NCBI GenBank assembly: GCA_027493525.1 | Contig: JAOSKN010000003.1 | Coordinates: 1,223,316 to 1,287,315, forward strand | DNA: 64,000 nucleotides | Origin: Planctomycetota bacterium | Lineage (GTDB): Bacteria; Planctomycetota; SZUA-567; H5-PLA8 | Direction: 5' to 3' | Shown: positions 8,038 to 56,415 of the stretch, in pieces | Numbering within the stretch: position 1 is the stretch's first letter | Layout: each line of letters begins with the position of its first letter | Notes under the pieces: model-generated | Told to the model about the DNA's origin: nothing | What the model saw: only the letters and a program-made list of their open reading frames with translations | The model's database searches: none | Made by a program: the position numbers and the translations under genes

Positions 8038-8216
8038 AGTAATCAGTAATCAGTAATCAGTAATCAGTAATCAGTAATCAGTAATCAGTAATCAGTAATC
8101 AACCACTGCCACTGCATGTCAAGAAATCCCAATTCTGTTCACTGTTCACTGACCACTGATCACTGTTCACTGTTCACTGACCACTGTTCACTGTTCACTG
8201 ATCACTGATCACTGAC
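8038..8216. repeat. Inverted pair of heptamer arrays (AATCAGT)x~9 / (ACTGTTC, ACTGATC)n
   Basis: Seen directly at 8038-8101 and 8135-8216. Confidence 0.9.
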
Positions 8217-9040
8217 TACGGTCCCTGCCCCAGTTCCCGGCTCCGCTCCGCCGCGCGCCGGATCGCCGCGGTGAGCTTCTCCTTCACCCCGTCGGCCTCC
8301 AGCCGCTCCACCGCCGCCTGCGTGGTGCCGTTGGGACTCGTCACGCGCCGGCGCAGTTCCTCCGGCGCCAGGCCCGTCTCCTCCAGCAGCTTCGCCGCGC
8401 CCAGGCACGTCCGCGTGCTCAATTGCAGCGCCTGCTGCGGCGTGAAACCCTCGCGAATCCCCGCCTCGACCATCGCCTCGACCAGGTAGAACAGGTACGC
8501 CGGGCCGCTCCCCGAAAGCCCCGTCACCGCGTCCATCATCCGCTCTTCGACGCGCAGCACGACCGCGGAACTCGAAAGCAGCGTCTCGATCGCGCGCAGG
8601 TCCGGCTCCGTCGCGTGCCGGCCCGCGCACAGGCACGCCGCGCCCAGGCCCACCAGCATCGGCGTGTTCGGCATCACCCGCACCGTCCGCGCGCCCGCCG
8701 GAAGCCCCGCCTCCAGCCGCCGCGTCGGCACCCCCGCCGCGATCGACGCCAGCAGGTGCCGCTTCACCTCGAAGAACGCGCCGATGTCCTTCAAGACCTC
8801 TTCGATCGTCTGCGGCTTCACGCACAGCACCAGCACGTCCGCCGCCTCGAGCACCTCGCGGTTGGTCCGCGCCGCGCGCACCCCGAGTTCCTTCGCGAAG
8901 AGCTCCCGCCGCGCGTCCGATACGTCGCTGGCGATCACACGGTCTTTCGGCAGCAGATTGCTCTTGATTACACCGCGCGCCAGCGCCTCGGCCATGTTGC
9001 CCGCGCCCAGCAGTCCCAACGTCCGGCTCGCCAATTCCAT
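8216..9040 (-). CDS. proC: Pyrroline-5-carboxylate reductase
   Basis: GAGNMA, CVKPQ, RVMPNTP, GLSGSGPAY and VTSPNGTT motifs. Confidence 0.97.
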   Translation of the reverse strand: MELASRTLGLLGAGNMAEALARGVIKSNLLPKDRVIASDVSDARRELFAKELGVRAARTNREVLEAADVLVLCVKPQTIEEVLKDIGAFFEVKRHLLASIAAGVPTRRLEAGLPAGARTVRVMPNTPMLVGLGAACLCAGRHATEPDLRAIETLLSSSAVVLRVEERMMDAVTGLSGSGPAYLFYLVEAMVEAGIREGFTPQQALQLSTRTCLGAAKLLEETGLAPEELRRRVTSPNGTTQAAVERLEADGVKEKLTAAIRRAAERSRELGQGP

Positions 9041-9394
9041 GAAGCGTCAACCCGTCCGTGCGCGGCACGCCAACTCGAAGGTGAACCCGTCCCGTCCGCC
9101 CCGCGTGCTCTGGCCCTCTGCGGTTGGAAGAGGTCGATGCAAATGCTAACGCACCTTGCGTAGTTGCCAACTGGGAAAAGGAACCCGCCCCGCGCTCGTC
9201 TCCATGCCTTCCTACTTATCCTTGTCTCCTGCGCCTTGATCGCTTTCCCTTCCTCCCCGAGGAGGGGCAGGGGCGGCGCCGAACCAATCCGCGCGAAGCG
9301 CGCCCCAATTCCGAATGGAGTTCAGACTAAAATTGCTCGGCGTTCTCCGCGTCTTCTGCGGTTCAAGCCGTGTGGTCGTGTGCGGAAGGCGGGA

Positions 9395-16871: not shown

Positions 16872-18253
16872 GGGGTATTGTCAAAAGTTGTGGATGGCGA
16901 GAGGAGAATCATGCGGCGTTTTCCTTGATGCCGTCCACGAAACGGATGCCTCGAATCACGTCTTCCAGCAGCTTATGGCCGTTTAGTTTCCGCCAGCGCT
17001 TCTCGGCAACCTGAGCGAGTTTGAACACCATCGCCAGCGTGGCTTGGCGCGTGCCGCAGCCTTTGGTCTTGTGCGTCCGCAAGCGCACCGTGGCGAAGGC
17101 GGACTCGATCGGGTTCGTCGTTCTCAGATGCGCCCAATGCTCGGCGGGGAAATCGTAAAACGCCAACAGCGCGTCTTGGTCCTTGAGCAGACACTCGACC
17201 GCCTTGGGATGCTTGGCTTGGTACGTCGCCACGAACGCATCGAACGCTGCCTGCGCATCCTTGCGCGTCTGGGCCATCCAGATCTGATGCAATTTCTCCT
17301 TGGCTGAAGGCTGTAATTTCTTGGGCAGGCCGTTCAGCACATTCATCGTCTTGTGAACCCAGCAACGCTGCACCCGGCACTTGGCAAAGGCTTTCGGAAG
17401 CGCCGCCCAGAAGCCCAACGCACCGTCGCCGATGGCCAGGTCCGGGCCGTTCTTCAAGCCGCGCGCTTTCAGGTCCGTCAAGACCTCAAGCCAGGACTGT
17501 TCGCTCTCCCGCACGCCGTCATGCACGGCGACCAGTTCCTTCTTGCCGTCGGCCGTGGCCCCCATGACCACCAGGATGCACGAGCGGTCTTCCTCCAGGC
17601 GGACGTTGAAGTAGATGCCGTCCACCCACAGATACACGTAGCGCTTGCCCGCCAAGGACCGCCGGTTCCAGCTCGCGTACTCGGAGGCCCAGACGTCCTT
17701 GATCCGCGTGATCGTATTGGCCGAAAGCCCCTTGGCTTGCGGCCCCAACAGCGCGCTCAGCGCCTCCGGAAAGTCCTGCGTGGAGATGCCCTTCAAATAG
17801 AGCCACGGGATCAGGTCTTCCATGCTCTTGGTCCGGCGCAAATAGGGCGGCAGAATCTTGCTCGTAAAGGGCTCTCGCTCGTCCGAGGGGCGCCGGTCTT
17901 CCACGCGCGGCTGCGCTACGCGTACGGCGCCGATGCCCGTCTGGATCGTTCGTTCCGGCAGGTAGCCGTTGCGCACCACCACGCGATGCCCGCGCTCGTC
18001 CCGCGCCCGCTCGAAACGCTGGAGGTATTCTTCCACCTCCGCGTTCAGCGCCGCGGCTAGCAAGCGCTGCGCGCCTTCGTTCAGGATGTGAGTAAGCCCG
18101 TCCCGGCTGGCAGCTTGCGGATCGAGCGAAACCGTCGTACCCTGGCTCATGTGGCGTATCCTCCTGCCCTTGTGGGCGTGGTGGCCTTAGATCTCCACCA
18201 AGGATACGCCGCACTTTTCTTTCTCGCTCATCCACAACTTTTGACAATACCCC
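16872..18253 (-). mobile_element. IS256-family element, copy 1 (1382 bp)
   Basis: 25-bp TIR GGGGTATTGTCAAAAGTTGTGGATG; 9-bp TSD CATATATGC. Confidence 0.97.
16909..18150 (-). CDS. IS256-family (mutator-type) transposase
   Basis: RNGY, YLWVDGIY, DGALGFW, QRCWVHK and RTTNPIES motifs. Confidence 0.97.
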   Translation of the reverse strand: MSQGTTVSLDPQAASRDGLTHILNEGAQRLLAAALNAEVEEYLQRFERARDERGHRVVVRNGYLPERTIQTGIGAVRVAQPRVEDRRPSDEREPFTSKILPPYLRRTKSMEDLIPWLYLKGISTQDFPEALSALLGPQAKGLSANTITRIKDVWASEYASWNRRSLAGKRYVYLWVDGIYFNVRLEEDRSCILVVMGATADGKKELVAVHDGVRESEQSWLEVLTDLKARGLKNGPDLAIGDGALGFWAALPKAFAKCRVQRCWVHKTMNVLNGLPKKLQPSAKEKLHQIWMAQTRKDAQAAFDAFVATYQAKHPKAVECLLKDQDALLAFYDFPAEHWAHLRTTNPIESAFATVRLRTHKTKGCGTRQATLAMVFKLAQVAEKRWRKLNGHKLLEDVIRGIRFVDGIKENAA

Positions 18254-18930: not shown

Positions 18931-20312
18931 GGGGTATTGTCAAAAGTTGTGGATGGCGAGAGGAGAATCATGCGGCGTTTTCCTTGATGCCGTCCACGAA
19001 ACGGATGCCTCGAATCACGTCTTCCAGCAGCTTATGGCCGTTTAGTTTCCGCCAGCGCTTCTCGGCAACCTGAGCGAGTTTGAACACCATCGCCAGCGTG
19101 GCTTGGCGCGTGCCGCAGCCTTTGGTCTTGTGCGTCCGCAAGCGCACCGTGGCGAAGGCGGACTCGATCGGGTTCGTCGTTCTCAGATGCGCCCAATGCT
19201 CGGCGGGGAAATCGTAAAACGCCAACAGCGCGTCTTGGTCCTTGAGCAGACACTCGACCGCCTTGGGATGCTTGGCTTGGTACGTCGCCACGAACGCATC
19301 GAACGCTGCCTGCGCATCCTTGCGCGTCTGGGCCATCCAGATCTGATGCAATTTCTCCTTGGCTGAAGGCTGTAATTTCTTGGGCAGGCCGTTCAGCACA
19401 TTCATCGTCTTGTGAACCCAGCAACGCTGCACCCGGCACTTGGCAAAGGCTTTCGGAAGCGCCGCCCAGAAGCCCAACGCACCGTCGCCGATGGCCAGGT
19501 CCGGGCCGTTCTTCAAGCCGCGCGCTTTCAGGTCCGTCAAGACCTCAAGCCAGGACTGTTCGCTCTCCCGCACGCCGTCATGCACGGCGACCAGTTCCTT
19601 CTTGCCGTCGGCCGTGGCCCCCATGACCACCAGGATGCACGAGCGGTCTTCCTCCAGGCGGACGTTGAAGTAGATGCCGTCCACCCACAGATACACGTAG
19701 CGCTTGCCCGCCAAGGACCGCCGGTTCCAGCTCGCGTACTCGGAGGCCCAGACGTCCTTGATCCGCGTGATCGTATTGGCCGAAAGCCCCTTGGCTTGCG
19801 GCCCCAACAGCGCGCTCAGCGCCTCCGGAAAGTCCTGCGTGGAGATGCCCTTCAAATAGAGCCACGGGATCAGGTCTTCCATGCTCTTGGTCCGGCGCAA
19901 ATAGGGCGGCAGAATCTTGCTCGTAAAGGGCTCTCGCTCGTCCGAGGGGCGCCGGTCTTCCACGCGCGGCTGCGCTACGCGTACGGCGCCGATGCCCGTC
20001 TGGATCGTTCGTTCCGGCAGGTAGCCGTTGCGCACCACCACGCGATGCCCGCGCTCGTCCCGCGCCCGCTCGAAACGCTGGAGGTATTCTTCCACCTCCG
20101 CGTTCAGCGCCGCGGCTAGCAAGCGCTGCGCGCCTTCGTTCAGGATGTGAGTAAGCACGTCCCGGCTGGACGCTTGCGGATCGAGCGAAACCGTCGTACC
20201 CTGGCTCATGTGGCGTATCCTCCTGCCCTTGTGGGCGTGGTGGCCTTAGATCTCCACCAAGGATACGCCGCACTTTTCTTTCTCGCTCATCCACAACTTT
20301 TGACAATACCCC
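18931..20312 (-). mobile_element. IS256-family element, copy 2 (1382 bp)
   Basis: Same TIRs as copy 1; 9-bp TSD CTTACAATG. Confidence 0.97.
18968..20209 (-). CDS. IS256-family transposase
   Basis: Identical to copy 1 except two N-terminal residues (AASRDG vs ASSRDV). Confidence 0.97.
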   Translation of the reverse strand: MSQGTTVSLDPQASSRDVLTHILNEGAQRLLAAALNAEVEEYLQRFERARDERGHRVVVRNGYLPERTIQTGIGAVRVAQPRVEDRRPSDEREPFTSKILPPYLRRTKSMEDLIPWLYLKGISTQDFPEALSALLGPQAKGLSANTITRIKDVWASEYASWNRRSLAGKRYVYLWVDGIYFNVRLEEDRSCILVVMGATADGKKELVAVHDGVRESEQSWLEVLTDLKARGLKNGPDLAIGDGALGFWAALPKAFAKCRVQRCWVHKTMNVLNGLPKKLQPSAKEKLHQIWMAQTRKDAQAAFDAFVATYQAKHPKAVECLLKDQDALLAFYDFPAEHWAHLRTTNPIESAFATVRLRTHKTKGCGTRQATLAMVFKLAQVAEKRWRKLNGHKLLEDVIRGIRFVDGIKENAA

Positions 20313-32481: not shown

Positions 32482-35400
32482 CTACTTCACGTCCCGCGCG
32501 TTCGGCATCGTCGTCACCGTGTCCGGAAGATGCTCCACCTCCGCGTCGTCCGGCAGCTTTTCGAGGCGGAAATCGTCGAGCAATAGCGCTTTGCCTTCCC
32601 CGGCGAGGAAGTACAGGTTCCCCGGATGGAACGGCGCGGGCGTGAGCAGCGTGAAGCTCACCCGCGTCCAGTCCCGGTCGTTGACCTCGAACGACTCCCG
32701 GAAGCGCAGGTACCGCCCGTCGATGGCGTTGTTCTTGCCCAGGATCCGGTTCACGTCCACGCTCGCGCCGAACGCGCCCTCGAGCGCGCGGGCCGCGAAC
32801 GAGAGCCGGTATTTCGCGGCCGGTTCGAGGCGGTAATTCAGGACCTTCTTGCTTCCGGCCAGGAGCGAGCGCTTCCCGTCGGCCGCCGCCGCCTCGTGGT
32901 ACGTCCCGCCGAAGCGGTCGAACTCGAACGAGGGATCGTCCATGAACGGGTAGGCGCCGGCGCGGAGCTTCCGGACGGCGCCCTCGGCTTCGACCTCCAG
33001 GTCCACGATCTCCGGGCGGCGCAGCGCCGCCGGGTCGGCGTAGGGGAAGCTGACCGTCGCCAGTTCGCCCGGGCCGACGCTGAACGGGAGCTTCGCCGTC
33101 TCGAGGGCCGCGTGGGCCGAGGCCGCGCGGACCTCGCCCGAGATCGCGCGCTGCGTCGGGTTGTAGAGGTGGACGTCCATCTGCCTGAAGTCGCGCTGGT
33201 CCCAGTGCGAGAGCAGGCTGTGGACGCCCCGGGCCTCGCGGACGAAGAGGATCCCGCAGAGCTGCCGCGCCGGGACGAGGAACTCCACCGTCGGCCGCCC
33301 GCCGCGGTAGACGGTCTCGAAGCGGATCTCGCGCGGCGGCCGGCCCAGTTCCAGCAGCACCGCGCGGGTCGGGATCCAGTCGGCGGGCGCCGTGCCGGCG
33401 GCGTCCAACTCGGCCAGCGGCGTCAGGTCGATCCGCGCCCTGTAGTCGTGCCACGCGCGCCCTTCCAGCGTGGCGTTGCCTTCCGGCCAGTCGCGCCGGC
33501 TGCGGTTCCAGAACTGCGCCAGGAAGCCGCGCGTCCCGTCGGGGCTGAGCACGCGATGCAGCTTCCCGTTCAGCTCGCTCTCGCTGAGCATGATGCGGCC
33601 CTTGAACTGCGAGGCCAGCGGGAGGTTCCCGTCGATCTCCAGCCCCAGGTCGTCGAGGAAGCGCGCCTCGTTGATCCAGCGCGTGATCCAGTTGCGCAGG
33701 CGCACGACCTCGACCGCCCACGGCTCCTCCTCGCGGTGGTCCAGCCGCGTGCCGTACATCCACGCCGAGTTGAAGCGCTTGAAGCGCTTCGCGCCCCAGC
33801 CCGAGCCCGACTGCCCCTCGAACTGCAAGTGGTCGGGATGCGTGAAGCGGAGCATCTCGCTGTCCATGCTGCTGCTGCCCACCTGCTGGGCCATGTAGGG
33901 CTGGTAGGCGTCGCACTGCATCTCCATGATCGGGAGGAAGTCCGGGTTGCGCTTGCGGCTCTCCTCGAGGATGCGTTTGGCGAGCTGCGAACGGTGGTAG
34001 CCGCCGCGCCCTTCGCCGTGCATCCCGAGGTGGGGGTTGTACTCCGGGATGTAGCCCTGGGTGTGGAACGTGTCGAGGTACGCGGTCGTGCAGTGGAAGT
34101 CCCCGGCGTACTTCTCGGCGACCCAGAAGGTCAGCCAGTCGCGCCACGGCTTGCTGTAGGCGGACATGGCCGTGTACGCCCACGGATAGCCGCCGCGGAA
34201 GCCGCTGGCGCGGATCTTCTCCATTTCCCCGGGCCACTCGGCCTTCGGCTCCGGGGGCTTGCGCGCGGGCGAGCCGTAGCGCGCGTTCTCGAGCAGCCAC
34301 TGCCAGGCCTTGCCCTCCTTCTTGCCGGGCGGCGCGGCCCAGTCGGGCATCCGCTCCCACGGCGTGCCGAAGAAGTCCTTGCAGGCGTCGTCGAAGACCC
34401 ACGTCGAAGGCCCTTGCGGCAGGATGTAGTAGCCGATCTGCCCGCCCTGCTCGCGCCAGGACTTGTTGAGCTTCGCGAAGGCCTCCGGCCCGCCGGCGTC
34501 GTCGGGCGGATAGTAGTAGCAGGGGCAGGACTGCGCGGTGTCGGAACCCCAGACCTGCACGTGGCTGAAGCCCATCTCGATCGCCTTGCGCAGCACGCCT
34601 TCCGTCATGGACTCGTACTGGAAGCCCGGGCGCTGGAACGAGACGTTCCCGAACATCCAGCCGTCGGTGTCGGCCGTCCACGCCGGCCACGTCGCGTCGG
34701 GGAAGACGGTCCGGAACCAGGCCTTGTACCAGAGCGCGCCGGCGTGCCAGTCGCCCGCGTGCGCGCCCAGCGCCGCGTGGAAGGTCGCCTCGCCGCCGCC
34801 GGCCTTGATGCGGTCCTGCCGCAGCAGGCTGAAGCCCATCCAGGTCCGCGAGGCGTCGGGCGCGGCCTTGAAGACCGACGAGACCAGCTTCGGGTCGTGC
34901 GTCCCGAGGTAGAAGCCGGCCTGCCCGTCGTAGAGGTCGAAGTACCCCCGCCGGGCCGATCGGGTACGGGCTCTCCAGCGCCGCCTTGGTGGTCGGATCG
35001 GGGAACTTCTTCCCCGTCCCATACGGCCACAGCAGCGTGTCGTCGCGCCCGTCGGCCCCGATGCGGACTTGCTCCAGGATCGGGAAGTGGACTTGCAGGA
35101 CGTCCTCCGCGTGCCCGTTCTTCACCGTGACGTCCGACTCCAGGTAGCCGGCGTCGGTGAGCGTGTAGCGGGTGACGACCTCGATCGGCAGCTCGAGACC
35201 CCGGTACTGGAAGCGCGCCTCGCGCCCGGAGACGGCGCCTTCGACGAGCTTGAAGCCGCTCGCGGCGTCGAGCCACAAGCCGCTGTCGTTCTTCCCGTCG
35301 TCGGGCTTGACGAAGACGCGGAAGGCGGGGCTCTCCAGGCCCGGCGGGACGAGCTTCGCCGAGCCGGCGCCGAGCGTCTCGATGCCCGCCAGCGCGCCGG

Positions 35401-36385
35401 TCCGCGCCGAGAAGGTGTAGCGGACGTTCTCGCCCGCGAGCTGCGGGTAGGCGGCGGGGTCCACCTCGGCCAGGACCTCCGGCAGCGCGAGGACCGGGAT
35501 CTCCGCGGGGCCGTCGGTCTCGAGCGTCAGGCGCACGCGGAGCGAGGCCGGCGGCGCCTGCGGCTCGTGGCTCAGCGCGCCGTCGAAGGGCAACGCGGTC
35601 CACGTCCCGCCCTCGTCGAAGGACGTCTCGCAGCTCACGCGCCCGTGGGCGTTGAGCCGGTCCAGGTGCACGCGCCGCCAGGCCTTCACGCCCGGCAGGC
35701 GCAGCGTCTTGAAGTCCAGCGTCGCCGACTTGGAGAAGGCCGAAGGCGTCGCGGGGGGCCCGAGCCCCTCCGGGACGAACTCCGCGTCGGGATGCAGCAC
35801 GATCCGGTCCAGGCGCTTGCCGCCGTGCAGGTTCGAGATCGTGACCGTCGTGAAGCCCTTGCGCAGTTCGACCGTGCCGGTCTGCTGCCAGTACCAAGTC
35901 CTGAACTCCTTGGACGCGAGGACCACCGGCGCGGGCGCGCCGGTCCCGACCTGCTGGTTGTAGACCCAGTGCCCGCCCGACGGGCGCCAGAGCCGCGTCC
36001 AGACCTGGTACGTGCCGGGAAAGCGCACGATGACCGGGAGCACCAGCGTCGTGGCGCGTTCGATATACTTCCCGCCGGCGGCCTCCGGATCCTCGAAGTC
36101 GCGGTTCTGGCCGTGGGCGCGGAGCGCGTCCATGATCGCCTCGCTGGACGTGCCGCTCTTGTCCACGTCCTGCCAGAAGACGTCGTCGTAGTTCTCGGCC
36201 TCCAGGGCCAAGTACTTCACGTTTCCCGGCTGCGAAGGCACGGCGCCTTTGAGGCTGATGCGCCCGCCGCTGACGTACGCCCCGGAGTTCTGCTCCACGC
36301 TCAGCGGGAGCGCGAAGACGCGGGGCTCCTCGGCGCCGAAGAGCGAGGCGCAGGCCAGAAGCAGCAGGGCGATTCGCAGGTACAT
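32482..36385 (-). CDS. Large secreted glycoside-hydrolase-like protein (DUF6259-like), frameshifted at ~34947
   Basis: Signal peptide and CBM-like N-terminus in ORF 32147..36385. GDWHAGALWYKAW, AYLDTF and IMEMQCD are in ORF 32482..35022. Confidence 0.65.
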
Positions 36386-39072: not shown

Positions 39073-40458
39073 CTAAATACTACCCCCCTCCATGAGCATC
39101 CGGCGCACCCAATGGGTCTTCATCAGCGGGTCGCGGAGTTCCAGAAAGGCCGCGTAGAGCTTCGCGCGCATCTCGGCGAGCTTCGTCGCGTGGGCGGGGT
39201 CTTCGGCGAGGTTCCGGCCTTCGTGGGGGTCGGCGCGAAGGTCGTAGAGTTCGTCCAGATCGGTCGGATTCCAGACCAGCTTCCAGTCCTTGTCCCGGTA
39301 CATGCGCTGCGAGTACATCCCGAACTGCCCGCCGTGGTACGTTGCCAGCAGCCGCCGGCGGCAGGGCGAGTCGTCGTCCTGCCCTTTCAGGATCGGCAGC
39401 AGCGAACGGCCTTGGAATTTCGCCGGGACCGCGCCGGTCGCGAGGTCCGCGAAGGTTGCGGCGAGATCCAGCACGTTGCTGGCGAAGCCGTCATAGCGCC
39501 GCCCGGGCGCGATCGTGCCGGGCCAGCGCGCCAGGAGCGGCACGCGGACGATCTCGTCGTAGAGGTTGCAGTGCTTGTCGAAGAGCCCGTGAGCGCCGGT
39601 CATGTCGCCGTGGTCGGTGCTGTATACGACCAGGGTCTCTCCGGCGATGCCGTCCTCTTCCAAGGCGTCCAGGAGCGTGCCGACGCGCCGGTCGATCATG
39701 CTCACCGAGCCGAAATAGCCGGCGGCCTGGCGGTCCCAGTAGCCGCGCCAGGGCTTGCCGTCGAGTTCCCAGGTGCGGCGCATCTGCCGCTGCTGGCGCG
39801 GCTTGCCGGCCAGATCGTCGGCGAAATTCGGCCAGGGTTCGATGGCGGCAGGGTCGTACATCGAGGCGTACGGCTCGGGCGTGTGGTACGGCGGATGCGG
39901 CTCCTCGAAGTTGAGCATCGCGAAGAACGGCCGGTCGCGTCCGGCCTGGGCGCGGATGAACTCCCGCGTCAACGCCGTGACGCGCGCGCTCTGGTGTTCC
40001 TCCGGCGCGCCCGCGACGGGATGCGGGAGGCACGGCGGGAGGCTGTCGCGCGGTGGGAGGCCCGCGTGGTTCTTCTCGGGCGGCACGTTGAGGAACTCGT
40101 CGAAGCCCACGTCCTGCGGCTTGTAGCCCGGCGCGACGTGCCACTTGCCGGCGTGCGCGGAGACGTAGCCGGCCCGCTTCAGCAGCCGCGGGAAGAACTC
40201 CAGGCTCAGCGGCGCATGCGCGCGGGACTCGCTGAGGTTGAAGAGCGCGATCCCGCCGTGCTCGACCGGCCACAAGCCCGTCAGGAGCGACTGCCGCGCC
40301 GGCGCGCTGACGGGCGTGTTGCAGCCCGCGTGCGTGAAGACCAGGCCCTCGCGCGCCAGCCGGTCCAGATTCGGCGTCTTCACCAGCGGATGCCCGGCAT
40401 AGCCCGCGCAATCGTGGCGGTGCTGGTCGCTGAAAATGAAGAGGATATTGGGCTTCAC
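39073..40458 (-). CDS. Family S1 sulfatase, Ser-type
   Basis: PNILFIFSDQHR, SAPARQSLLTG, GKWH, PHPP, STDHG and ELYDLRADPHE motifs. Confidence 0.93.
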   Translation of the reverse strand: MKPNILFIFSDQHRHDCAGYAGHPLVKTPNLDRLAREGLVFTHAGCNTPVSAPARQSLLTGLWPVEHGGIALFNLSESRAHAPLSLEFFPRLLKRAGYVSAHAGKWHVAPGYKPQDVGFDEFLNVPPEKNHAGLPPRDSLPPCLPHPVAGAPEEHQSARVTALTREFIRAQAGRDRPFFAMLNFEEPHPPYHTPEPYASMYDPAAIEPWPNFADDLAGKPRQQRQMRRTWELDGKPWRGYWDRQAAGYFGSVSMIDRRVGTLLDALEEDGIAGETLVVYSTDHGDMTGAHGLFDKHCNLYDEIVRVPLLARWPGTIAPGRRYDGFASNVLDLAATFADLATGAVPAKFQGRSLLPILKGQDDDSPCRRRLLATYHGGQFGMYSQRMYRDKDWKLVWNPTDLDELYDLRADPHEGRNLAEDPAHATKLAEMRAKLYAAFLELRDPLMKTHWVRRMLMEGGSI

Positions 40459-46230: not shown

Positions 46231-46264
46231 TCGTTACCTGCGTATCAGGCGTGAAGTTTGATCC

Positions 46265-46309
46265 GCGCCGGGTTTGGACCGTGCGGCGCACGGTCCAGGC
46301 TCGGCGCGG
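46265..46309. terminator. Long hairpin between convergent genes (probable terminator)
   Basis: CGCGCCGGGTTTGGACCGTGC-GGC-GCACGGTCCAGGCTCGGCGCG. Confidence 0.65.
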
Positions 46310-46741: not shown

Positions 46742-46917
46742 TCTCCCCGTCCGCCCGGGCTCCGTCGAGCGGAATCCCGCTACCACGCGCCCCGAACTTC
46801 GCAGGCCGCTTTTTCCAATTCATTTTGGACGGGTTTCGGGGACAATTAGTTATCCGCGCAATCCACCGGCCGCGCAGGCTTCCAGGCGCGAGTCGGGACT
46901 TCAGGAGGGGCGTTTCG

Positions 46918-48876
46918 ATGGCCGTGGAAACCTGGAACGGGGTTTCCCTGGAACTCTGGGCGAAGACGCTCCTGATTCGCGAGACCGAAGAGCGCTTCCT
47001 GCGGCTCTTCTCGGAAGGCAAGCTCTTCGGCACCGTCCACACCTGCATCGGCCAGGAGTACACGGCGGTCGCGGTCGCGGAGGCGCTCCAGCCGGGCGAC
47101 CTGATCTTCAGCAACCATCGCTGCCACGGGCATTACCTCGCGCGCACCGGCGACGTGGAGGGCCTGACCGCGGAGATCATGGGCCGCGCGACGGGGCTCT
47201 GCGGCGGGCGCGGCGGCAGCCAGCACCTCTGCGCGGCGGGCTTCTTCAGCAACGGCGTGCAGGGCGGGATCGTGCCGGTGGCGGCGGGGCTGGCGCTGGC
47301 CGAGGAACTCGCCGGGACCTCCAACCTCGCCGCGGTCTTCATCGGCGACGGCACGCTGGGCGAAGGCGTCGTCTACGAGACGCTGAATATCGCGAGCAAG
47401 TGGGCGCTGCCGCTGCTGGTCGTGCTCGAGAACAACGGCTACGCGCAGAGCACCAGCCAGCGCGAGACGCTCGCCGGGGAGCTCGACGCGCGCGCGGAGG
47501 CCTTCGGGATCCGCGCCGGCCGCTGCGAACTGTGGGACATCCCGCAGCTCCTGGCTCGCGCGGAGGCCGCCGCGGCCTACGTGCGGCGCGAGCGCAAGCC
47601 GTTCTTTCTGCGCGTGGACACCTACCGGCTGATGGCGCACTCCAAGGGCGACGACGACCGAGACCCGGCGGAGGTCGCCGCGTACCGCGCGAAGGATCCG
47701 CTGGGGCGCTTCGCGGCCGAGCACCCCGAGGATGCCGCGCGCCTGCAGCGCGAAGCCTCCGCGCTCGTGGACCGCGCCGTGGCCAAGGCCGAGGCCGCGC
47801 CGTACGCGGAGGCCGGCCCGCACGACGCCGATCCCCCGGCCTGGCGCGCCGTGCGCTGGCAGCCCACGACCTTCCAGGCGCACGACCGCGTGGTCGGGCG
47901 CCTCCACGACGCGCTGCGCAACCACCTGCTGCAGAACGAGAAGCTCGTGCTGCTGGGTGAGGACATCGCCGGGCCGTACGGCGGGGCCTTCAAGGTCACG
48001 CGGCAGCTCAGCCTGGAGTTCCCCGGCCGCGTGCGCAACACGCCGATCAGCGAGGCGGCGCTGGTGGGGCTCGGCAACGGCCTCGCGCTCAACGGCTGGC
48101 TCCCCGTCTGCGAGATCATGTTCGGCGACTTCCTGACGCTGGCCTTCGACCAGTTCCTGAATCACGCCGCGAAGTTCCGCTACATGTACAACGAGCAGGT
48201 CAAGGTCCCGCTCGTGATCCGCACGCCCATGGGCGGCAGGCGCGGCTACGGCGCGACGCACAGCCAGTCGCTGGAGAAGCACTGGCTGGGCGTGCCGCAC
48301 ACGCGGGTGCTGGCGCTGCATCACCGCTTCGACCCGTACGAACTCGTCGACCGCCTCCTTTCCAACGCCGACCGCCCCACCCTGCTGATCGAGAACAAGC
48401 TGCTCTACGGGCTCAAGACCGACGCGCCGCCGCCGCGGGGTTTCGTCGTGGAGCACAGCGACGAAACGTTCCCCACGACGCGGCTGCGCCCGCTGACCGA
48501 GCCGGACCTCGTCATCTTCTGTTACGGGGGCCTGCTGCCGGAGGCCGAGCAGGCCGCGGACCGGCTCTTCGAAGAGCACGACCTGGCCGCCGAGATCGTC
48601 TGCCCGGCGTGCCTCTATCCGTTCAACGCCGCGCCGCTGGAGGAATCGCTGCGCCGCACGGGCAAGCTCCTGATCGTCGAGGAAGGGCAGGGGTTCGCGG
48701 CGCTCGGGGCGGAGGTCCTGGCGCAACTGGCCGAACGCGGCGCGGCGCCGGCGCGCGTCCGCCGCCTGGCCGCGCCCGCGCACCCCATCCCCTCCAGCGG
48801 CCCGCTGGAGAAGGCGCTGCTGCCGGGCGCCGCGCAGCTCGTCGAAACCGCGGCGGGGATGTGCGCCGATGCCTGA
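46918..48876 (+). CDS. Fused E1 alpha/beta ThDP-dependent 2-oxoacid dehydrogenase/transketolase-like protein
   Basis: HTCIGQE, SNHRCHGH, GDG...ENN, YRLMAHS, LGEDI, TPISE, EIMFGDF and GATHSQS motifs. Confidence 0.93.
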   Translation: MAVETWNGVSLELWAKTLLIRETEERFLRLFSEGKLFGTVHTCIGQEYTAVAVAEALQPGDLIFSNHRCHGHYLARTGDVEGLTAEIMGRATGLCGGRGGSQHLCAAGFFSNGVQGGIVPVAAGLALAEELAGTSNLAAVFIGDGTLGEGVVYETLNIASKWALPLLVVLENNGYAQSTSQRETLAGELDARAEAFGIRAGRCELWDIPQLLARAEAAAAYVRRERKPFFLRVDTYRLMAHSKGDDDRDPAEVAAYRAKDPLGRFAAEHPEDAARLQREASALVDRAVAKAEAAPYAEAGPHDADPPAWRAVRWQPTTFQAHDRVVGRLHDALRNHLLQNEKLVLLGEDIAGPYGGAFKVTRQLSLEFPGRVRNTPISEAALVGLGNGLALNGWLPVCEIMFGDFLTLAFDQFLNHAAKFRYMYNEQVKVPLVIRTPMGGRRGYGATHSQSLEKHWLGVPHTRVLALHHRFDPYELVDRLLSNADRPTLLIENKLLYGLKTDAPPPRGFVVEHSDETFPTTRLRPLTEPDLVIFCYGGLLPEAEQAADRLFEEHDLAAEIVCPACLYPFNAAPLEESLRRTGKLLIVEEGQGFAALGAEVLAQLAERGAAPARVRRLAAPAHPIPSSGPLEKALLPGAAQLVETAAGMCADA

Positions 48877-51800
48877 ACCCGCCATCGTCCGCGTGCCGCA
48901 CGAGACCGTGAACGACGAGACGGTGACGCTCCAGCGCCGCGCCGTGGCCGAGGGTCGCGCGGTGAAGGCCGGCGAAGTCCTCGCGGTGCTCGAGACGAGC
49001 AAGGCCAGCATCGAGGTCGAGGCGCCGCGCGACGGGTACGTCTTCTGGTGCGCGGAGGAAGGCGCGGACATCCCCGTCGGCGGAGCGCTCTGTGGGATCG
49101 CGGACACCGAGCGGCGCCCCGAGTTCGCCGCCGAGGCGCTGAAGCCGGCGCACGCTCAGGCCGACTCTGACGCGCCGCGCGCAGGAGGCCCCGCGCGGTT
49201 CAGCGCCGAGGCGCGCCGGTTGATCGCCGAGCACGGCCTGGACGAACGGCGCTTCGACGGCCAGGGCCTGGTCCGCGGCGCGGACGTGCTCAAGGCTTGC
49301 CGCCCCGCCCAGGCAGATCACGCCCCTGCCGCCGCGTGCGAGCCGCCGCCAGCCTTCGCGAAGCCCGGCGCGCCCGCGCGCCGCGAACGGCTCCCGCGCG
49401 CCAAGCGCGCCGAGAACCGCATGCTCCGCGCCGCCGCGGCGCGGACCGTGCCCAGCACCGTCTCGGTCCAGGTCCCCACGCGCGGGCTGCGCGCGTCGAT
49501 CCACGAGCAGTCCGAGCGCTACGGCAGCTTCACGGCGGTGGCGATCCACGAGTTGGCGCGGCTCTTGCGCGAAGTCCCCGTCCTGAACGCCTACCAGCAC
49601 GACGACGCGATCCACTTCTACGAATCCGTCAACGTCGCCGTGGCGATGGACGCCGGCAAGGGGCTCAAGGCGCCGGTGATCCGCGACGCCGACCGCAAGA
49701 GCCTGCGCGAAATCGCCGCCGAGCTGCAGGCCTTCCTGATGACGTACCTGCGCGGCGAGCTGGCCGCCGCGGACTTGGAGGGCGCGACGTTCACGCTCTC
49801 CGACCTGAGCGGCGAGGGCGTGCAGCAGTTCGTGCCGGTGCTGAACGAGGCCCAGGCGGCGACGCTGGGCATCGGCGCGGAGCTGCCGCACGGCGCCGGA
49901 CGCGCGCTGACGCTGACGCTCACCTTCGACCACCTGCTCACCGAGGGGCGCACGGCGGCGGGCTTCCTGCGCGCGCTGGGCAAGGCGCTGGCGAAGTACG
50001 ACCGCGACCCCGGCGCGGAGCCCCCGCGCCGCGCGCCCCGGCCTTCGCCCCCGCCGACCCCGGCGATCCCCTCGTCGGGTACGTCGTGCGCGCCTGGTCC
50101 GGCGTGCTCAAGGCCGGGGCCGTCGAGCCGGACGCCAATTTCTTCGACCTCGGCGGCGACTCGATCATGGCCGCTCAGTTCATCAACGACCTCCAGGAGC
50201 TGGCCGAGGAGACCTTCCACGCGGTGGCGCTCTTCGACGCCCCCACGGCCGGGCAGTTCGCGGCGATGCTGCGCAAGGATTACCCGCGCACGACCGCCGC
50301 GCTGCTCAAACGGCTCGGGGCCGGCGACGCCTGGGCCGGAACCCGGGCGCAGGCCGACGAGCCGCCCGTGGACGAGGCCATGCTCGCCGCGCTGCGCGCG
50401 CTGATCCCCGCGCTGCCCAAGCAGCCGCCGCGCCCGCCGGCGCGGAAGAACCCGCGCGCGGTCTTCGTGCTCTCCCCGCCGCGCTGCGGTTCGACGCTGC
50501 TGCGCGTGATGCTTGCCGGGCACCCGGGGCTCTTCGCGCCGCCGGAATTGGAGCTGCTGAACTTCGATTCGCTGGGCGCGCGGCGGGAGTACTGCGCCGG
50601 CCCGCTGGCCGGAAAGCTCGAGGGGCTGCTGCGCGCGCTGATGGACCTGAAGGGCGTCGACGCCGAGGCCGCGCGCGCGCTGATGACCCCTTACGAAGAC
50701 CGCGACCTGGACACGGGCAGCTTCTTCGGCGAACTGCAGGGCTGGCTCGGCGGCCGGCTCCTCGTCGACAAGACCCCGGCCTACGCGCTGGACCTGCATG
50801 CGCTGGAGCGGGCCGAGGCCTGCTTCGAGGCGCCGCGCTACGTCCACCTCAACCGGCACCCGTACGGGATGACGCTCTCCTTCGAGGAGTCCCGCATCGA
50901 CCAGGTTTTCTTCCGCGTCGCGCACCCCTTTGGCGTGCGGCGGCTGGCGGAACTGATCTGGAACGTCTGCACGGAGAACATCCGCACGTTCCTCGCGAAC
51001 GTCCCGGCCGCGCGGCAGATGCTGCTGCGCTACGAGGACCTCGTCGCCGACCCGCGCGCGCGGATGCTCGAGCTGTCGGACTTCATGCAGGTGCCGTTCG
51101 ACGAGCGCATGCTCACGCCGTACGAAGGCAAGGAAGCCAAGATGACCGACGGGCTGCACGCGGTCTCGCGGATGATCGGCGACCCGAAGTTCCACAAGCA
51201 CAAGTCCATCGACGCGCGGATGGCCGACCGCTGGCGCGAGGCCTACGACAGGGACTTCCTGGGCGAGGTGACGTGGCGGAACGCGCGCGCCCTGGGCTAT
51301 GCGCGGGAGGCGCCGAGCGGCAAGCCCGCGGCGGAGCCGGCCGGCGCCGAGGCCCAGCCGCCGCTCTCGACGTCGGTGGTGCCGATCAAGCGCAGCGGGA
51401 CCAAGCGCGCGTTCTTCTGCGTCCACCCCGCGGGCGGCTCGGTCTACAGCTTCGGGACGCTCGTGAAGCACTTCGACCCGGAGCGCCCGATCTACGGGCT
51501 CCAGGCGAAGGGCGTGGAGGACCTCGAGGACGCCGAACTGCACTCCAGCATCGAGGAGATGGCCGCCTACTACGCCGAGGTGGTCCGTTCGGTACAGCCC
51601 GAGGGCCCGTACCTCATCGGCGGGCGCTGCATGGGCGGGATCATCGCCTTCGAGATGGCGCGCCGGCTGGCGGACCTGGGGTTCGCCGTGCCCTACGTCG
51701 CGCTCCTCGACACGCGGAACCTGCTCAGTTCGCGCAAGAAGCACGCCCAGGATCCGATCCCGGTCAAACTGAAGCGCTTCATCCGGCATTTCGACCTGGC

Positions 51801-52152
51801 CCGCAAGGTCCGCAAATGGAAGAAGCGCCGCGCCGAGCGCGAGGCGCTGAAGGAAGCCTCGCCCACGCAGCGCCGCATCCAGGATCTCAAGAGTATCCAC
51901 AAAAAGGCCCGGCGCACCTACGAGGCGGAGCCCTACGCCGGCGCGGTGACGCTCTACCACAACAGTTCCGACACGCGCGAGAAGACCTACATCGCGCACT
52001 GGCAGGCCGTCGCGCCGAACCTGGAATGCGTGGAGATCCGCGGCAGCCACGTCTCCATGTTCCAGGAGCCGCACATCCGCGACCTGGCCGCCGAGATGGC
52101 CCGGGGGATGGACCGCGTGGACGCGCAGGCCCTGGCCGGGCGGCGGTCATGA
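48869..52152 (+). CDS. E2 (lipoyl + acyltransferase)-ACP-sulfotransferase-thioesterase fusion; 1-nt shift in the C-run 50021-50025
   Basis: ETSKA lipoyl site; TFDHLLTEG; FFDLGGDSI; SPPRCGSTLLRVMLAGH, DKTP, RHPY, RYEDL; FCVHPAGG, GRCMG, GSHVSM. Confidence 0.85.
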
Positions 52153-52381: not shown

Positions 52382-55300
52382 CTACTTTTCGGCTTTAGGT
52401 TGGGGGCACATCCAGACCACGCCCGGCAGCGCGCGGTCGTCCTCGCCCGCCAGGCGGGCCGAGAAGCCCCAGCCGCCCTCGCCCTGGTTCACACGCACGA
52501 CCACGAGGTGTTCTCCGGCCTTCAGCGCCACCTGAACCTTATCCTCGTCGGGGGTGAGGCCGCGTTCGATCTCGTGGCGATGCACTTCCTGCCCGTCGAT
52601 CCAGACCACGATGCCGTCATCGCTGCCCAGCAGGAGCCGGCCGGCAACCTCCTTCTCGACCTTCACGAGGGCCGCGGCGTAGACATAGGCGTTCACGTTG
52701 GGGCTGAGCGCTTTGGCCAGGTCGATCGGGCCGAAGTCCGCGGGCTTAAAGAGCGTCCGCCAAGCCACGTCGCGCTCGCCGTCTTTGTACGTCGCGGCGA
52801 AATCGGGGCGGCCGTCCTTCGCGACCGTCTCCCACGCGCCGGCCTTCTCGTCCTGGAACGGCCCGAGGAAGAGCCAGTGCTTGAAATAGCCGCGCTCCTT
52901 CTCGAAGGCCAGCAGGGCCTCGCCGAGGCGCTTGCCTTCCTTCGATTCCGGGTCGAATACCGCGGCGAGCTCCTTCAACAGCGGCTCGCCGGCGGCAGCG
53001 GGCGCCTTGGCGGCGACGGCGTCGTGGAACTTTCGCAGTTCGCGCGCCACGGCGTCGGCCCGCCGTTCGCGCTTGACCGTCTCGACGAAATGCTTGAGCG
53101 CCTCGGCGCGCTCCTCGCCGCTCCATTGTTCCTTCGCCAGCAGCGCCGCGAAGCGCCGGTCGGCCAATTGGCGTTCAAAGACGTCCTTGAACGCGCCGGC
53201 GGCCTCGTCCCGCGCGCGGGCGGCCAGCCAGGCCTCGAACTCGGCGTCCTTCTTCAGTTCCTTGGCGAGGGCCTCGAGCTTCTCGACGAAGCGGTTGACG
53301 AGCGGGCCGCTGGGCGCGGCGGTCAGGAGTTCGGCCAGACGCTCCTGGAGCGCGGCGCAGTCCTTGGCGGCGAGCGCGAGGTCGGCGAGATGCCCGAGGG
53401 CCTGGCGCGCGTAGACGCGCGCGGCGTAGTCGGCCTGGGCTTCCGGTTTCGCGGCCAACCAGTGCTTGCGGGCGAGCTGGATCCCGCCTTCGCCCGGCTG
53501 AACGATTCCCGTTCCGGCGTAGGTCCGGACGCACTCGGATAGCAGCAGCCCCAGCGAAGGGCCGTCCGCCAGGGCCGGCGCGGGCGGCTCGGAGAGGAGC
53601 GACGAGATGGGCCTGTCGCCGCACCAGCGCGCGAGGCGCAACGCGGCCTGCCAGGCGGCCAGATCGCCCTTCGGCGGCAGGGTCACGGGGCCGCCCGGGG
53701 TGAGAAGCCGCTCGCCGGCCCGCACCAGCGGCTGCGCCTCGAGCTTGTACTCCTTGCGTTTGGCTTCCTTGGTCCGGAGGCAGCAGAGCGCGTCGCCGAC
53801 GATCATCAGCCGCCAGGGGAGCCAGAAGTTCTGCGCCGTGCGGAGCCGGAAGGCGCTGGCGAACGGCGTGCCCTTGGCGATCCGCGGGCCGTAGTAGCTG
53901 GGCGGCTGGAAGCTGGTGAGGAACGGCTCGGCGGTGGAGCCGAAATACCAGTAGGCCCCGCCCCACAGCGCGCGCCCGGCCAGGCTGTCCGGACTGACGA
54001 CGTCCGCCGCGGAACCGGAGTGGGTCACGTGAATCGCCACGGGGCCGCCGACGGGGAAGTCGTCGGAGTTCCCCCGCCCCCGCCGATGGACCAGTTCGTC
54101 GAGCCGCCGGAGCTGTTGATGGTCAGCAGGCCGTAGCGATTCCAGGGGCCGGTTCGGGCGCGGAAGGTCTCGATTACCGCGTCCTTGCCGTTCACGTGGT
54201 CCACGCGCAGGAGGCCTTTCCAGGCCGCTTCGGAGAAGTCCATGCGGTACTTGCCCCAGATCGTCTTGGGGTTCGTGCCGTAGGTGTTGAAGAGGAGCGC
54301 GTCCTGGGGCTGCAGGAAGAGCGAGCACATGGCCTGGTAGGCGCTGCGCGGGGCGTCGCCGAGGAGGCGCGTGGCGACGGCCAGGCGGGTGTGGTCGCCG
54401 GGGTCGCGTCCGAGGGTGTCCTCGAGCGCGTGCGTGCCGCCCCAGCGCTCGTAGACCTCGCCCGAATAGCGGTAGGGGTACGCGCCGGCGAGGGTCACGG
54501 CGGCCCAGCGGTCCTCGCGCGGGAGCCCGATGGCATTGAGGCCCTGGAGCACGCGCGCGGCCAGGTCCCAGGCCTGCGCCGCGCTGAGGAAGTCGTTGGG
54601 CTGCGCGGTGCGCTTCTGGTCGCCGGAACCGATCTCGGGCACGGGAACGATCTCGAAGCCCTGAAAGCGCCCGGCGGCCAGCGCCAGCCCGCCGGCGGTC
54701 TCGCCCGAGACGCCGTCGCTCACCACGAGGCCCAGCGGCTCGCTTTCGACGCGGGCGAGGCGTTCGCGCAGGTCCTCGACGCCGACGCGGGCGGGGACTT
54801 TCCCGTCGTCGCGCTCCCAGGCGGCGGCCACGGTGCGCCGCAGCAGGTCGGGCTCCAGCGCGTCGCCGGCCCCCCGCCCTTCGGCGGGCGGGACGACGAG
54901 CACCTGCCGGGGCTTGAAGGCGGCGGCGAAGCGCGGCGCGTATTCGTCGTCCTGGAAGAGCACGGGGAAGAACTCGCCGTCGCTCCAGGCCGCGAGCGCG
55001 TTGGCGTAGGCGTCCATGTCGGGCACGAGGACCAGCACGTCGCGGATCGTGCGCTTGGCCCATTTGGAACGGTTGGGTCCGTTGCGCCCGTCGGCCGCGT
55101 CGCGCATGGCCCGCGCGGCGCGGTAGAGCGTCACCGACTCGCCGGCGGAGGAGGCCTTCTCGGCCTCGCGATAATACTCGTCGGCCTCCTTCTCGGCGCC
55201 CGCCGCGAAGGCCCAGTCGGCCAGATCGAGGAAGGTATCGGCGACGTTTCGCCCGAGCGGGGCCTCCCTCGTGAGCCGCGCGGCCCAGGCCCGGCAGGCC

Positions 55301-56415
55301 TCGTCCTGCTCCAGCAGCAGCGCGGCGTAGGCCACGAGGCCCGTCGCGCGCAGCAATTCCTCCAGCGACATCTCGCGCGCGATCAGCTTGTCGAGAAGTT
55401 CCTTGAGCGGCGCGTCGTTCTTGGCGTCGCGCTCTCCGCCGCGCAGGAGCGAGCGCAGGGCGGCGAGCTGGACTTTGAGGTCGGCGGGGCGGGCCTGGGC
55501 GAGCGCGGCGTTGCGCTTCTGGGCCTCCTGCCCCAGGGCCTGCATCGCGGCGCGCAGGACGGCGGGCAGGGGCGCGGCGGCCTGCTGAACGGCGGCGAAA
55601 GCCTCGTCGGTGTCCGGCGCGGCGGCGTACTTGACGGCGGCCTCGTGCGCGGCGGCAAGCGCCTTGCGAGCCGGCTCGGGCCAGCTTCCGGAGAGGCTCA
55701 CGAACTCGCGCAGCGCCGGCTCCAGCGCCGAAGCGGGCGGCGCGTCGGCGCGCTTGGCCTGCGCGAGCTTTTCCAGGAGCTGCACGAGCCGCGCGGCGCG
55801 CGCGGCCTGGTGCGCGGGGGCCTCGGCGGCGAGTTCCTCCAGGCGCGCGGCGAGGGCCGGCTCCTTGCCGGCCAGCGGCGCGAGCAGCGCGGCGGCCTCG
55901 TCCGAGCGGCCCATCTGCTCCAGGACCGCCAGGGCATGCGCGCGGCGGGCCGCGTCGGCGGGATCGGCCTTCACGGCGTCGCGCAGCGCGGCATACGGGA
56001 GCGGCCACTTGAGGATCCCATCGAGCAGGTCGGCCATCTTGGCCTTGAGCAACGGGACTTCGGAGACGGCGATGGTCTCGCCCTTGGGCGTGAGAAACAG
56101 AAACCCGTCCTGCGGCGCGCCGGCAAACGGCGCGAGGTCTTTCTCGCCCGACCAGACCTTCACGGCATGGAAGCGCGCCAGGCGCTCCTTGAAGCCGGTG
56201 GGTTCGTCGAGCCAGTGGCCGGCGTCGAGGCTCGCGACGTCCCAGTCGCGGCGCACGAGGACCAGGACGGGCTTGCCGTCGCGGGCGGCGGCCTTGAGCG
56301 CGGCCTCGAGCGGCCGCTCCTCGCCGCCCCGGGCGGCGCCGGCCAGCAAGAGGATCAGGAAGGCCGCGGCGGAAACGAACGCGCGGCTCGTCGAAGCAAT
56401 GGCTCGGCTGGACAT
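52382..56415 (-). CDS. Large secreted multidomain protein (thioredoxin-like, helical, alpha/beta, C-terminal beta-sandwich), frameshifted at ~54073
   Basis: Signal peptide; AARDGKPVLVLV; C-terminal WLFLGPF...LLLGSDDGIVVWIDGQEV. ORFs 54025..56601 and 52382..56485 join at a G-run. Confidence 0.7.

Follow-up and report, generated by a model that had tools for sequence, protein, structure and literature searches.

How a carrier domain could be charged in an operon that encodes none of the usual loading domains is the question raised by a two-gene unit at 46918-52152 of the window, the 64,000-nucleotide stretch of a Planctomycetota bacterium analysed here (contig JAOSKN010000003.1, positions 1,223,316 to 1,287,315). 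The first gene encodes the alpha and beta halves of a 2-oxo acid dehydrogenase E1 component in one polypeptide, and the second appears to encode an E2 component continued by a carrier, a sulfotransferase (ST) and a thioesterase (TE) domain (Table 1). Ketosynthase (KS), adenylation (A) and condensation (C) domains, whose absence was part of the original prediction for this locus, are indeed not found by Pfam in the unit or in the neighbouring open reading frames (ORFs) scanned across 39-59 kb. The reading preferred here, to which an even chance is given, is that E1 and E2 replace an A domain as loader of the carrier, that the ST sulfates the tethered acyl group, and that the TE releases it. A layout of this kind, which joins carrier priming resembling that of pyruvate dehydrogenase (PDH) with a carrier-ST-TE release module, is not described in the literature searched.

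ORF calls and translations give three long plus-strand frames in the unit, for E1, E2 and carrier-ST-TE. The E1 product has all of the thiamine diphosphate (ThDP)-binding, pyrimidine-binding and C-terminal domains that define a 2-oxo acid dehydrogenase (E1_dh, 4.6e-47, ~46963-47811; Transket_pyr, 3.7e-25, ~47905-48411; Transketolase_C, 2.7e-17, ~48499-48837). The ThDP motif GDG...NN is present in its translation, and its matches in the Protein Data Bank (PDB) are the alpha and beta E1 subunits of PDH and of branched-chain 2-oxo acid dehydrogenase. In the E2 frame, a lipoyl domain (Biotin_lipoyl, 7.4e-08, ~48929-49093) is followed by a stretch resembling a peripheral subunit-binding domain (PSBD, ~49190-49294) and by the catalytic domain (2-oxoacid_dh, 6.1e-36, ~49379-49996). 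In the alignment, human E2p has counterparts of the lipoyl lysine K45, the PSBD-like stretch and the catalytic histidine H355, and the TFTLSDL Ser is retained, although the lipoyl and catalytic motifs deviate (ETSKA, and DHLLTEG against DHRxxDG, which is DHRVVDG in human E2p). In the 707-aa frame that follows, Pfam places PP-binding at residues 18-81 (2.2e-13), Sulfotransfer_3 at 145-359 (5.1e-22) and Thioesterase at 463-679 (4.6e-27). The residues on which the original prediction relied, namely the lipoyl Lys (49001), the E2 His (49931) and the carrier Ser in GGDS (50161), are all in place in the translations. E1 and E2 reach no curated NCBIfam cut-off for the named PDH, 2-oxoglutarate dehydrogenase or acetoin dehydrogenase models (e.g. 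219.9 against 393.85, and 111.6 against 449). Judged by these cut-offs, the unit would lie outside any named 2-oxo acid dehydrogenase, and the scores are so far below them that the substrate cannot be named.

The two genes are arranged as in a coupled operon, with a strong ribosome-binding site before E1 and the overlap of the E1 stop (TGA, 48874-48876) with the E2 start (ATG, 48869) that had been pointed out originally and is seen in the sequence (ATGCCTGA). A hairpin upstream probably closes the preceding transcription unit, so that the two-gene unit begins downstream of it.

The E2 frame (48869-50404) and the carrier-ST-TE frame (open over 49297-52152) overlap, and the passage from one to the other falls at a run of five Cs. 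Third-position G+C content (GC3) changes frame sharply near 50020, from class 1 before ~49950 to class 0 from ~50040, so that the tail of the E2 frame is not coding. Homology to E2 likewise ends at ~50020, and homology to carrier-ST-TE restarts one frame over from ~50029. Adding one C to the run yields a protein of 1094 aa, as had been calculated, and the junction then reads AEPPA, as it does in an independent sequence, P0005. In this 834-aa protein, encoded on an 11,787-base metagenome contig, Biotin_lipoyl, 2-oxoacid_dh, PP-binding and Sulfotransfer_3 share one frame, which is continuous through the same junction (...AEPPAKRQPP..., against ...AEPPAPRAP... in the window with one C added). Its identity is 59% to the window E2 and 67% to the window carrier-ST, both pieces align end to end, and the lipoyl Lys, catalytic His, GGDS and PAPS (3'-phosphoadenosine 5'-phosphosulfate) loop are all kept. 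The proposed fusion of E2 to the carrier is thereby borne out by a second sequence, and the second gene is read as encoding one genuinely fused E2-carrier-ST(-TE) protein.

That the frame break is a homopolymer error of the assembly is a likely explanation. Two more long genes of the window, both on the minus strand, shift frame at runs of five Cs (32482-36385 near 34950, and 52382-56394 near 54079). The second of these has continuous frames of 1345 and 1350 aa in the relatives G002 and G005 (50% and 43% identity), which match the sum of the window halves (567 + 774 aa). The first has 1265-aa frames in G001 and G002, but at just 28% identity. The window contains 70 C5 runs against 25 G5 runs, and the RpoB of this genome is intact. 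Single-base errors at C runs seem to be a weakness of this assembly.

It is doubtful that the break is instead genuine, with the second gene a recently inactivated remnant from which nothing is made here. Four sequencing runs were compared with the site. Contigs listed for X2 and X3 leave 49977-50095 unbridged, X6 covers short diverged pieces only, and the sole contig that bridges 50021-50025 (X1, 1002 bases, 49736-50738) shows five Cs, as the assembly does; the failure to find the unit in the 40 relatives searched could also mean that it is dispensable. However, X1 is without bases at six other places in the stretch, of which five lie in runs of 2-5 Gs or Cs, and X2 covers five of these six sites and has none of the deletions. 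X1 also accounts for 81% of the words sampled, and it may represent the source sample. Being error-prone at G/C runs and possibly derived from the source sample, X1 is neither an accurate nor an independent witness for the C count. A remnant is also hard to reconcile with a GC3 of 0.93-0.95 on both sides of the break, with the lack of any further stop or break over 3.3 kb, and with breaks of the same type in other long genes of the assembly.

The original prediction knew of no described system with this architecture, and the searches show it to be very rare. Among longer proteins (8000 scored candidates), P0005 is the sole match to the E2 query. With P0005 itself as query against 1.84 billion representatives, it alone is matched at full length among the 150 matches listed; the other 149 cover carrier-ST only (approximately residues 400-834), and a protein with both parts should outscore matches of that kind. 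None of the 110 pattern matches from a metagenome scan with P0005 was a relative, and E1/E2 were joined to carrier-ST-TE in none of 166 loci from one metagenome and two GTDB scans. Separation of the parts in other genomes had been named among the observations that would count against the idea, and here the outcome is divided. No carrier, ST or TE homologue occurs in the 86 loci fetched with E2, and no E1/E2 in the 80 GTDB loci fetched for the carrier-ST-TE part (seven of which carry T-ST, T being the thiolation, or carrier, domain), but one fused orthologue, P0005, exists.

Closer to home, the carrier-ST-TE tridomain is found in none of 40 relatives of the genome, ten of which have partial carrier, ST or TE matches only. 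In the two genomes of the same genus, all that matches is an E1 paralogue of 40% identity, whose counterpart here lies at C3:519867. For the RpoB of this genome, the nearest named relatives (56-59% identity) belong to Planctomycetota. The unit was probably acquired by transfer, to judge from E1, for which the best match among the 40 relatives is 52% identical and that in an Acidobacteriaceae metagenome-assembled genome (MAG) is 63% identical.

That MAG belongs to a set of ten close loci (L011-L020) in which a fused E1(alpha-beta) gene is followed by an E2 gene. L011-L016 are MAGs labelled Acidobacteriaceae, Elusimicrobia, Deltaproteobacteria, Eremiobacterota, Planctomycetota and Korobacteraceae, and L017-L020 come from metagenomes. 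Compared with the window, their E1s are 47-63% and their E2s 32-45% identical, and gene order is the same in nine of the ten. The E1/E2 cassette of the fused-E1 type is widespread, and otherwise without carrier-ST-TE. Its E2s have in common with the window an N-terminal VP(H/Q)ETVND, the ETSKA motif and a DHxxx(E/A)(G/A) motif without the usual Asp, which in the unfused E2s takes the form DH(R/Q)xx(E/A)(G/A). Three of eight unfused E2s (L013, L014 and L020) end in a zinc-ribbon-like CxxC...CxxC extension of ~45 residues, so that this E2 clade evidently tolerates C-terminal additions. A gene for an Sfp-type phosphopantetheinyl transferase (PPTase) directly follows the L020 E2 (8230-8910). A search by the GxDS motif for small carrier genes near the unfused cassettes gave nothing convincing.

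Genes for MBOAT O-acyltransferases lie within a few kb of the cassette at three of these loci (L011, 10836-12311; L017, 11293-13143; L018, 3368-4828). The Acidobacteriaceae MAG and the two metagenome contigs may be related by descent, and these are not three independent cases. In L017, a gene for an AMP-binding enzyme stands directly after E2.

It may be that E1 and E2 form an ordinary dehydrogenase that makes acyl-CoA, that the carrier-ST-TE part is loaded in some other way or acts on a free substrate, and that the fusion serves co-expression or co-localisation; this is considered unlikely. It would agree with an E2 that, like CoA-using E2s, keeps the lipoyl Lys, the PSBD-like stretch, the catalytic His and the TFTLSDL Ser, and whose closest relatives are unfused. 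Moreover, 13 alignment columns separate fused from unfused E2s, and among them there is no functional clue, that is, no functional-looking residue change common to both fused forms. On the other hand, a domain able to load the carrier (adenylation, acyltransferase or FkbH) is missing from the unit, the genome has no further homologue of the carrier, ST or TE (E<=1e-6), and its primary metabolism is provided with separate E1/E2 sets. The maintenance of the fusion in P0005 at 59-67% identity points to a working connection between the parts.

The place that E2 occupies is best understood from the relatives of the carrier-ST-TE part. This had been assigned to the kind found in CurM and in olefin synthase (OLS), which are polyketide synthases (PKSs), and that assignment fails: the 120 longer relatives listed are without exception of the nonribosomal peptide synthetase (NRPS) type, have a Condensation or an AMP-binding domain or both, and lack a KS. 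Many are ~1700 aa long, which fits C-A-T-ST-TE, and matches of similar length mostly have the layout A-T-ST-TE or part of it. Identity to the relatives ranges from 38 to 50%, with coverage of up to 100%, and many proteins show homology along the whole T-ST-TE query (38-44% identity over 93-100%). The window carrier itself matches the peptidyl carrier proteins of NRPSs. A GTDB scan with carrier-ST-TE gave the same NRPS picture, at identities of <=49%. Named sources of the relatives are mostly Acidobacteriota (Thermoanaerobaculia, Pyrinomonadaceae, Blastocatellia). By its family relations, then, carrier-ST-TE comes from NRPS modules and not from a PKS. C-A-T-ST-TE and (C-)A-T-ST modules are its nearest relatives and share its TE family, including a few Cys variants, but they are loaded by adenylation and fed by condensation domains. 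The window unit has neither by Pfam, and E2 stands in that place.

An exchange of the loader before T-ST-TE has a parallel. P0222 (1796 aa) reads TubC_N-C-FkbH-T-ST-TE, with an FkbH model score of 323.5 bits against a cut-off of 146.65, and its T-ST-TE is 41% identical to that of the window at 98% cover. With an FkbH domain in the position of the A domain, it shows an earlier replacement of the loader in front of this tridomain. FkbH proteins load a glyceryl unit, which is a hydroxyacyl group. P0222 thus resembles the window in having a loader other than an A domain directly before T-ST-TE, and differs in that this loader is FkbH rather than E1/E2 and that it sits in an NRPS with a C domain.

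Many large NRPSs hold 2-6 stretches that match the carrier-ST of P0005, and such repetition suggests that in this family the ST serves for on-line tailoring and is more than a chain-end device. These STs form a large NRPS-embedded family (P0124-P0366), either in the arrangement C-A-T-ST-TE or as 2-6 T-ST repeats in synthetases that reach 7660 aa, mostly in Acidobacteriota MAGs. No description of it was found in the literature searched; the SulM paper (PMC11298585) names an integrated sulfotransferase domain in a figure legend only. Candidate roles are the formation of sulfate esters that are retained, or the use of sulfate as a leaving group.

For the ST taken singly, the proposed match to CurM and OLS stands, with the OLS ST (4gox, 1.7e-64) and the CurM ST (3.2e-63, 4gbm) as its best solved relatives, whereas the likeness does not extend to the TE or to a PKS origin. 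The PAPS loop (PPRCGSTLLRVMLAGH) and later ST blocks are conserved with respect to both structures, and PPELHLL of CurM and OLS is PPELELL in the window and in most of the NRPS-type relatives; the residue-level comparison with CurM draws on the printed alignments. Carrier, ST and TE also follow one another in one polypeptide in the CurM/OLS order. The likeness goes no further, since KS, acyltransferase (AT) and ketoreductase (KR) domains are found neither in the unit nor in the neighbouring ORFs scanned, and the unit has a PCP-like carrier, NRPS relatives, and a TE of another type with a Cys nucleophile. Without KS-AT-KR and with this TE, the unit is outside a strict CurM/OLS module.

The window TE is an ordinary type-I TE and is not CurM-like. 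The CurM TE is not matched by it at E<=10 and is absent from Foldseek ranks 1-49, the matches listed, for a model of the domain (predicted local distance difference test score, 89.7); these are type-I TEs of NRPSs, PKSs and fatty acid synthases (FASs), such as 7crn, Vlm2, AB3403, Pks13, NocB and EntF. Two features set it apart within its family. The nucleophile is Cys (GRCMG), shared by six of the 80 aligned matches, the window protein included, with Ser in the other 74. The other two triad residues, Asp and His, line up with those of the family, and the Asp column, 27 residues past the nucleophile, is common to 35 of 37 aligned TEs. Secondly, the lid of 71 residues contains 25 Lys or Arg and carries a net charge of +18, where the median for 36 homologues is -1.5. 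P0010, the closest TE homologue (37%), which also has Cys and lies behind an A domain, comes second with a lid charge of +12.

Cys TEs that form four-membered rings are described for SulM and ObiF, and for SulM a basic pocket that accepts a sulfonated substrate, in PMC11298585. The window shares with them a Cys nucleophile in a terminal TE, and the SulM substrate is, according to the same account, sulfonated on the carrier before it reaches the TE. The differences are equally clear: there is no sequence match of the window TE to either TE, the Gln-Cys-Asn motif given there is Arg-Cys-Met here, the Asp is in its usual place and not after strand beta7, and SulN is a free, N-sulfonating enzyme. 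Because of the charge of the lid, and by comparison with the SulM pocket, the window TE fits an anionic substrate.

These results bear on the alkene that was put forward as a possible product. E1 and E2 would load a 3-hydroxyacyl unit from a 4-hydroxy-2-oxo acid, the ST would sulfate the beta-hydroxyl, and the TE would carry out a decarboxylative elimination to a short terminal alkene. The idea gains from the fact that the closest solved STs are activating enzymes set in the same carrier-ST-TE order, and sulfation followed by decarboxylation is a mechanism on record, as outlined in PMC3903477. It loses most from the TE, for which the Foldseek matches listed are all ordinary NRPS, PKS or FAS enzymes, and further from NRPS relatives whose 2-6 repeated stretches suggest on-line tailoring rather than chain-end activation, from the change of PPELHLL to PPELELL, and from the lack of any sign of a 4-hydroxy-2-oxo acid substrate. 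With neither the TE nor the relatives CurM-like, decarboxylative release is left without specific support, and an alkene is regarded as improbable. The same low confidence attaches to the broader idea that the two proteins by themselves would convert a 2-oxo acid or ketose of central metabolism to a volatile short terminal alkene without ketosynthase, adenylation or condensation, with oxidative ThDP/lipoyl chemistry placing a 3-hydroxyacyl unit directly on the carrier, sulfation making its hydroxyl a leaving group, and CO2 and sulfate lost on release by the TE, or would alternatively make a new small sulfated hydroxy acid. Finally, it is very hard to credit that E2, ending in a long tail, and carrier-ST-TE, begun at an internal start, are distinct genes, or that a programmed -1 frameshift in the C run joins them in one protein, because although -1 is the direction needed and a gene caller gives a 688-aa protein (P0004) from GTG 50086, this start has no ribosome-binding site and cuts into the carrier domain (the PP-binding match begins three residues upstream of it, as the earlier doubt about an independent start for this frame implied), the E2 tail has no coding signal, P0005 needs no shift, and GAG CCC CCG is not a classical slippery heptamer.

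If E1 and E2 do serve as the loader in place of an A domain, the pathway might run as follows. E1, with ThDP, would decarboxylate a 2-oxo acid, or cleave a ketose or an acyloin, and reductively acylate the lipoyl group on K45 of the E2 part. The catalytic domain of E2, through H355, would then use the phosphopantetheine thiol of the carrier fused behind it, rather than CoA, as acyl acceptor, and the PAPS-dependent ST would sulfonate a hydroxyl of the tethered acyl group. The Cys TE with its basic lid could take over the resulting anionic acyl group; the simplest release would be hydrolysis to a small sulfated hydroxy acid, or else transfer to an acceptor. Hydroxypyruvate or a ketose would provide a glycolyl unit, and a 4-hydroxy-2-oxo acid a 3-hydroxyacyl unit. 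The lipoyl arm would be reoxidized by an E3 encoded elsewhere in the genome, which outside the unit has five E3-like Pyr_redox_dim proteins, an adenosine 5'-phosphosulfate (APS) kinase, one PPTase and one protein of the BPL/LplA/LipB family, and so appears to supply the cofactor machinery for such a pathway. The domains, motifs, fusion and family relations are observed, and from them we infer the chemistry, the hydroxyl on the acyl group and the product.

The precedent invoked for the loading step holds up. In the quinocarcin (QncN/QncL/QncM) and scleric acid (SclQ1-4) systems, a PDH-like pair is reported to put a ketose-derived glycolyl unit on a carrier (PMC6335953). By that published description, the Qnc and window systems are alike in that a ThDP component, a lipoyl/acyltransferase component and a carrier are encoded together. 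They differ in that Qnc has an E1beta-lipoyl-E2 fusion (QncL), a free ThDP subunit and a free acyl carrier protein, where the window has E1alpha and E1beta fused and the carrier on E2, and in that the Qnc unit is handed to an NRPS and the window unit would meet only an ST and a TE. The unfused cassettes L011-L020 are the other obvious comparison, with the gene order (in nine of ten) and motifs of the window, but no carrier, ST or TE.

Several observations weigh against this pathway. The scheme is weakest on the identity of the acyl group: the E1 alpha half is nearest to PDH-type E1 alpha models, though under their cut-off, and if pyruvate were the substrate, acetyl would be placed on the carrier and the ST would find no hydroxyl. 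Nor does the ST family point to any single substrate class, given the variety of A4 motifs in the A domains that precede T-ST (118 usable, with 10 FDVSVWE, 8 FDFSVWE, ~19 FDASVSE-like and ~30 FDGS-like). The window E1 is 57-63% identical to the unfused E1s of L011, L012 and L016-L019, and the contexts of L011, L012, L017 and L018, where neighbours were scanned, are unremarkable (a 2-oxoacid:ferredoxin oxidoreductase and AccA at L011, an acetyl-CoA hydrolase/transferase at L012). The unit includes no E3 gene. The fusion is known from two sequences only, one of them broken in its assembly, with the five-C count of X1 on the side of the break, and the other perhaps without a TE, since P0005 ends right after the ST and leaves the TE unconfirmed as part of the conserved unit.

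Should E2 acylate its own carrier, this would be a third way of priming T-ST-TE, beside adenylation and FkbH, and, next to the Qnc-type glycolyl loaders, only the second case of PDH chemistry feeding a carrier protein. It would also provide a first handle on the function of the STs built into NRPSs of Acidobacteriota and others. The practical interest would lie in an enzymatic conversion of keto acids to sulfate esters or, less probably, to short alkenes. The unit is small (two genes, ~5.2 kb) and would call on common cofactors only, so that direct reconstitution is possible.

Table 1. Positions of features in and upstream of the two-gene unit (window numbering) and of the E2 extensions at three related loci (numbering of each locus)
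Feature	Position	Strand	Basis
Hairpin, 20-bp stem, T-rich tail	46263-46309	+	Upstream sequence
Ribosome-binding site AGGAGG, 9 nt 5' of E1 ATG	46903-46908	+	Read from sequence
E1 gene, alpha and beta halves fused, 652 aa	46918-48876	+	ORF, Pfam
E2 part of fused gene, 384 aa	48869-50020	+	Translation, Pfam, alignment to human E2p
C5 run where the reading frame shifts by one base, probably one C short	50021-50025	+	Sequence, GC3, P0005
Out-of-frame tail of E2 ORF, Pro/Ser/Arg-rich, not coding	50026-50404	+	Translation, GC3
Pro/Ala-rich linker, carrier frame	50029-50079	+	Translation, P0005 alignment
Carrier (PCP-type thiolation) domain, phosphopantetheine Ser in GGDS at 50161	50080-50271	+	Pfam, PDB matches
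ST domain, CurM/OLS family; PAPS loop PPRCGST, active-site stretch PPELELL	50422-51300	+	Pfam, PDB, alignment
Type-I TE domain; Cys nucleophile (GRCMG) 51628, Asp 51709, His 52048	51415-52065	+	Pfam, model, alignment
Stop codon of fused gene	52150-52152	+	ORF
CxxC...CxxC extension of E2, L013	~5900-6080		
CxxC...CxxC extension of E2, L014	~9030-9206		
CxxC...CxxC extension of E2, L020	~8095-8257		

The window has ~70% G+C and comes from contig C3 of a 7.46-Mb genome in six contigs that is 88% complete. The ORFs scanned around the unit include a sulfatase, an epimerase, a short-chain dehydrogenase/reductase and an adenylate-cyclase-like protein, and the gene downstream of the unit (52382-56394, minus strand) is convergent with it. 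The sulfatase gene (39073-40389, minus strand; Sulfatase 1.1e-43, SGSH_C 7.1e-25) lies 6.5 kb upstream, its link to the unit not being shown. Further away, two genes for 413-aa Mutator-family (IS256-like) transposases, 16909-18150 and 18968-20209, both on the minus strand and ~2 kb apart, occupy a stretch of lower G+C (0.53-0.61). At the beginning of the window, the coding signal of 217-1334 (plus strand) passes from frame 217-1125 into frame 1122-1334, which may be another frame break.

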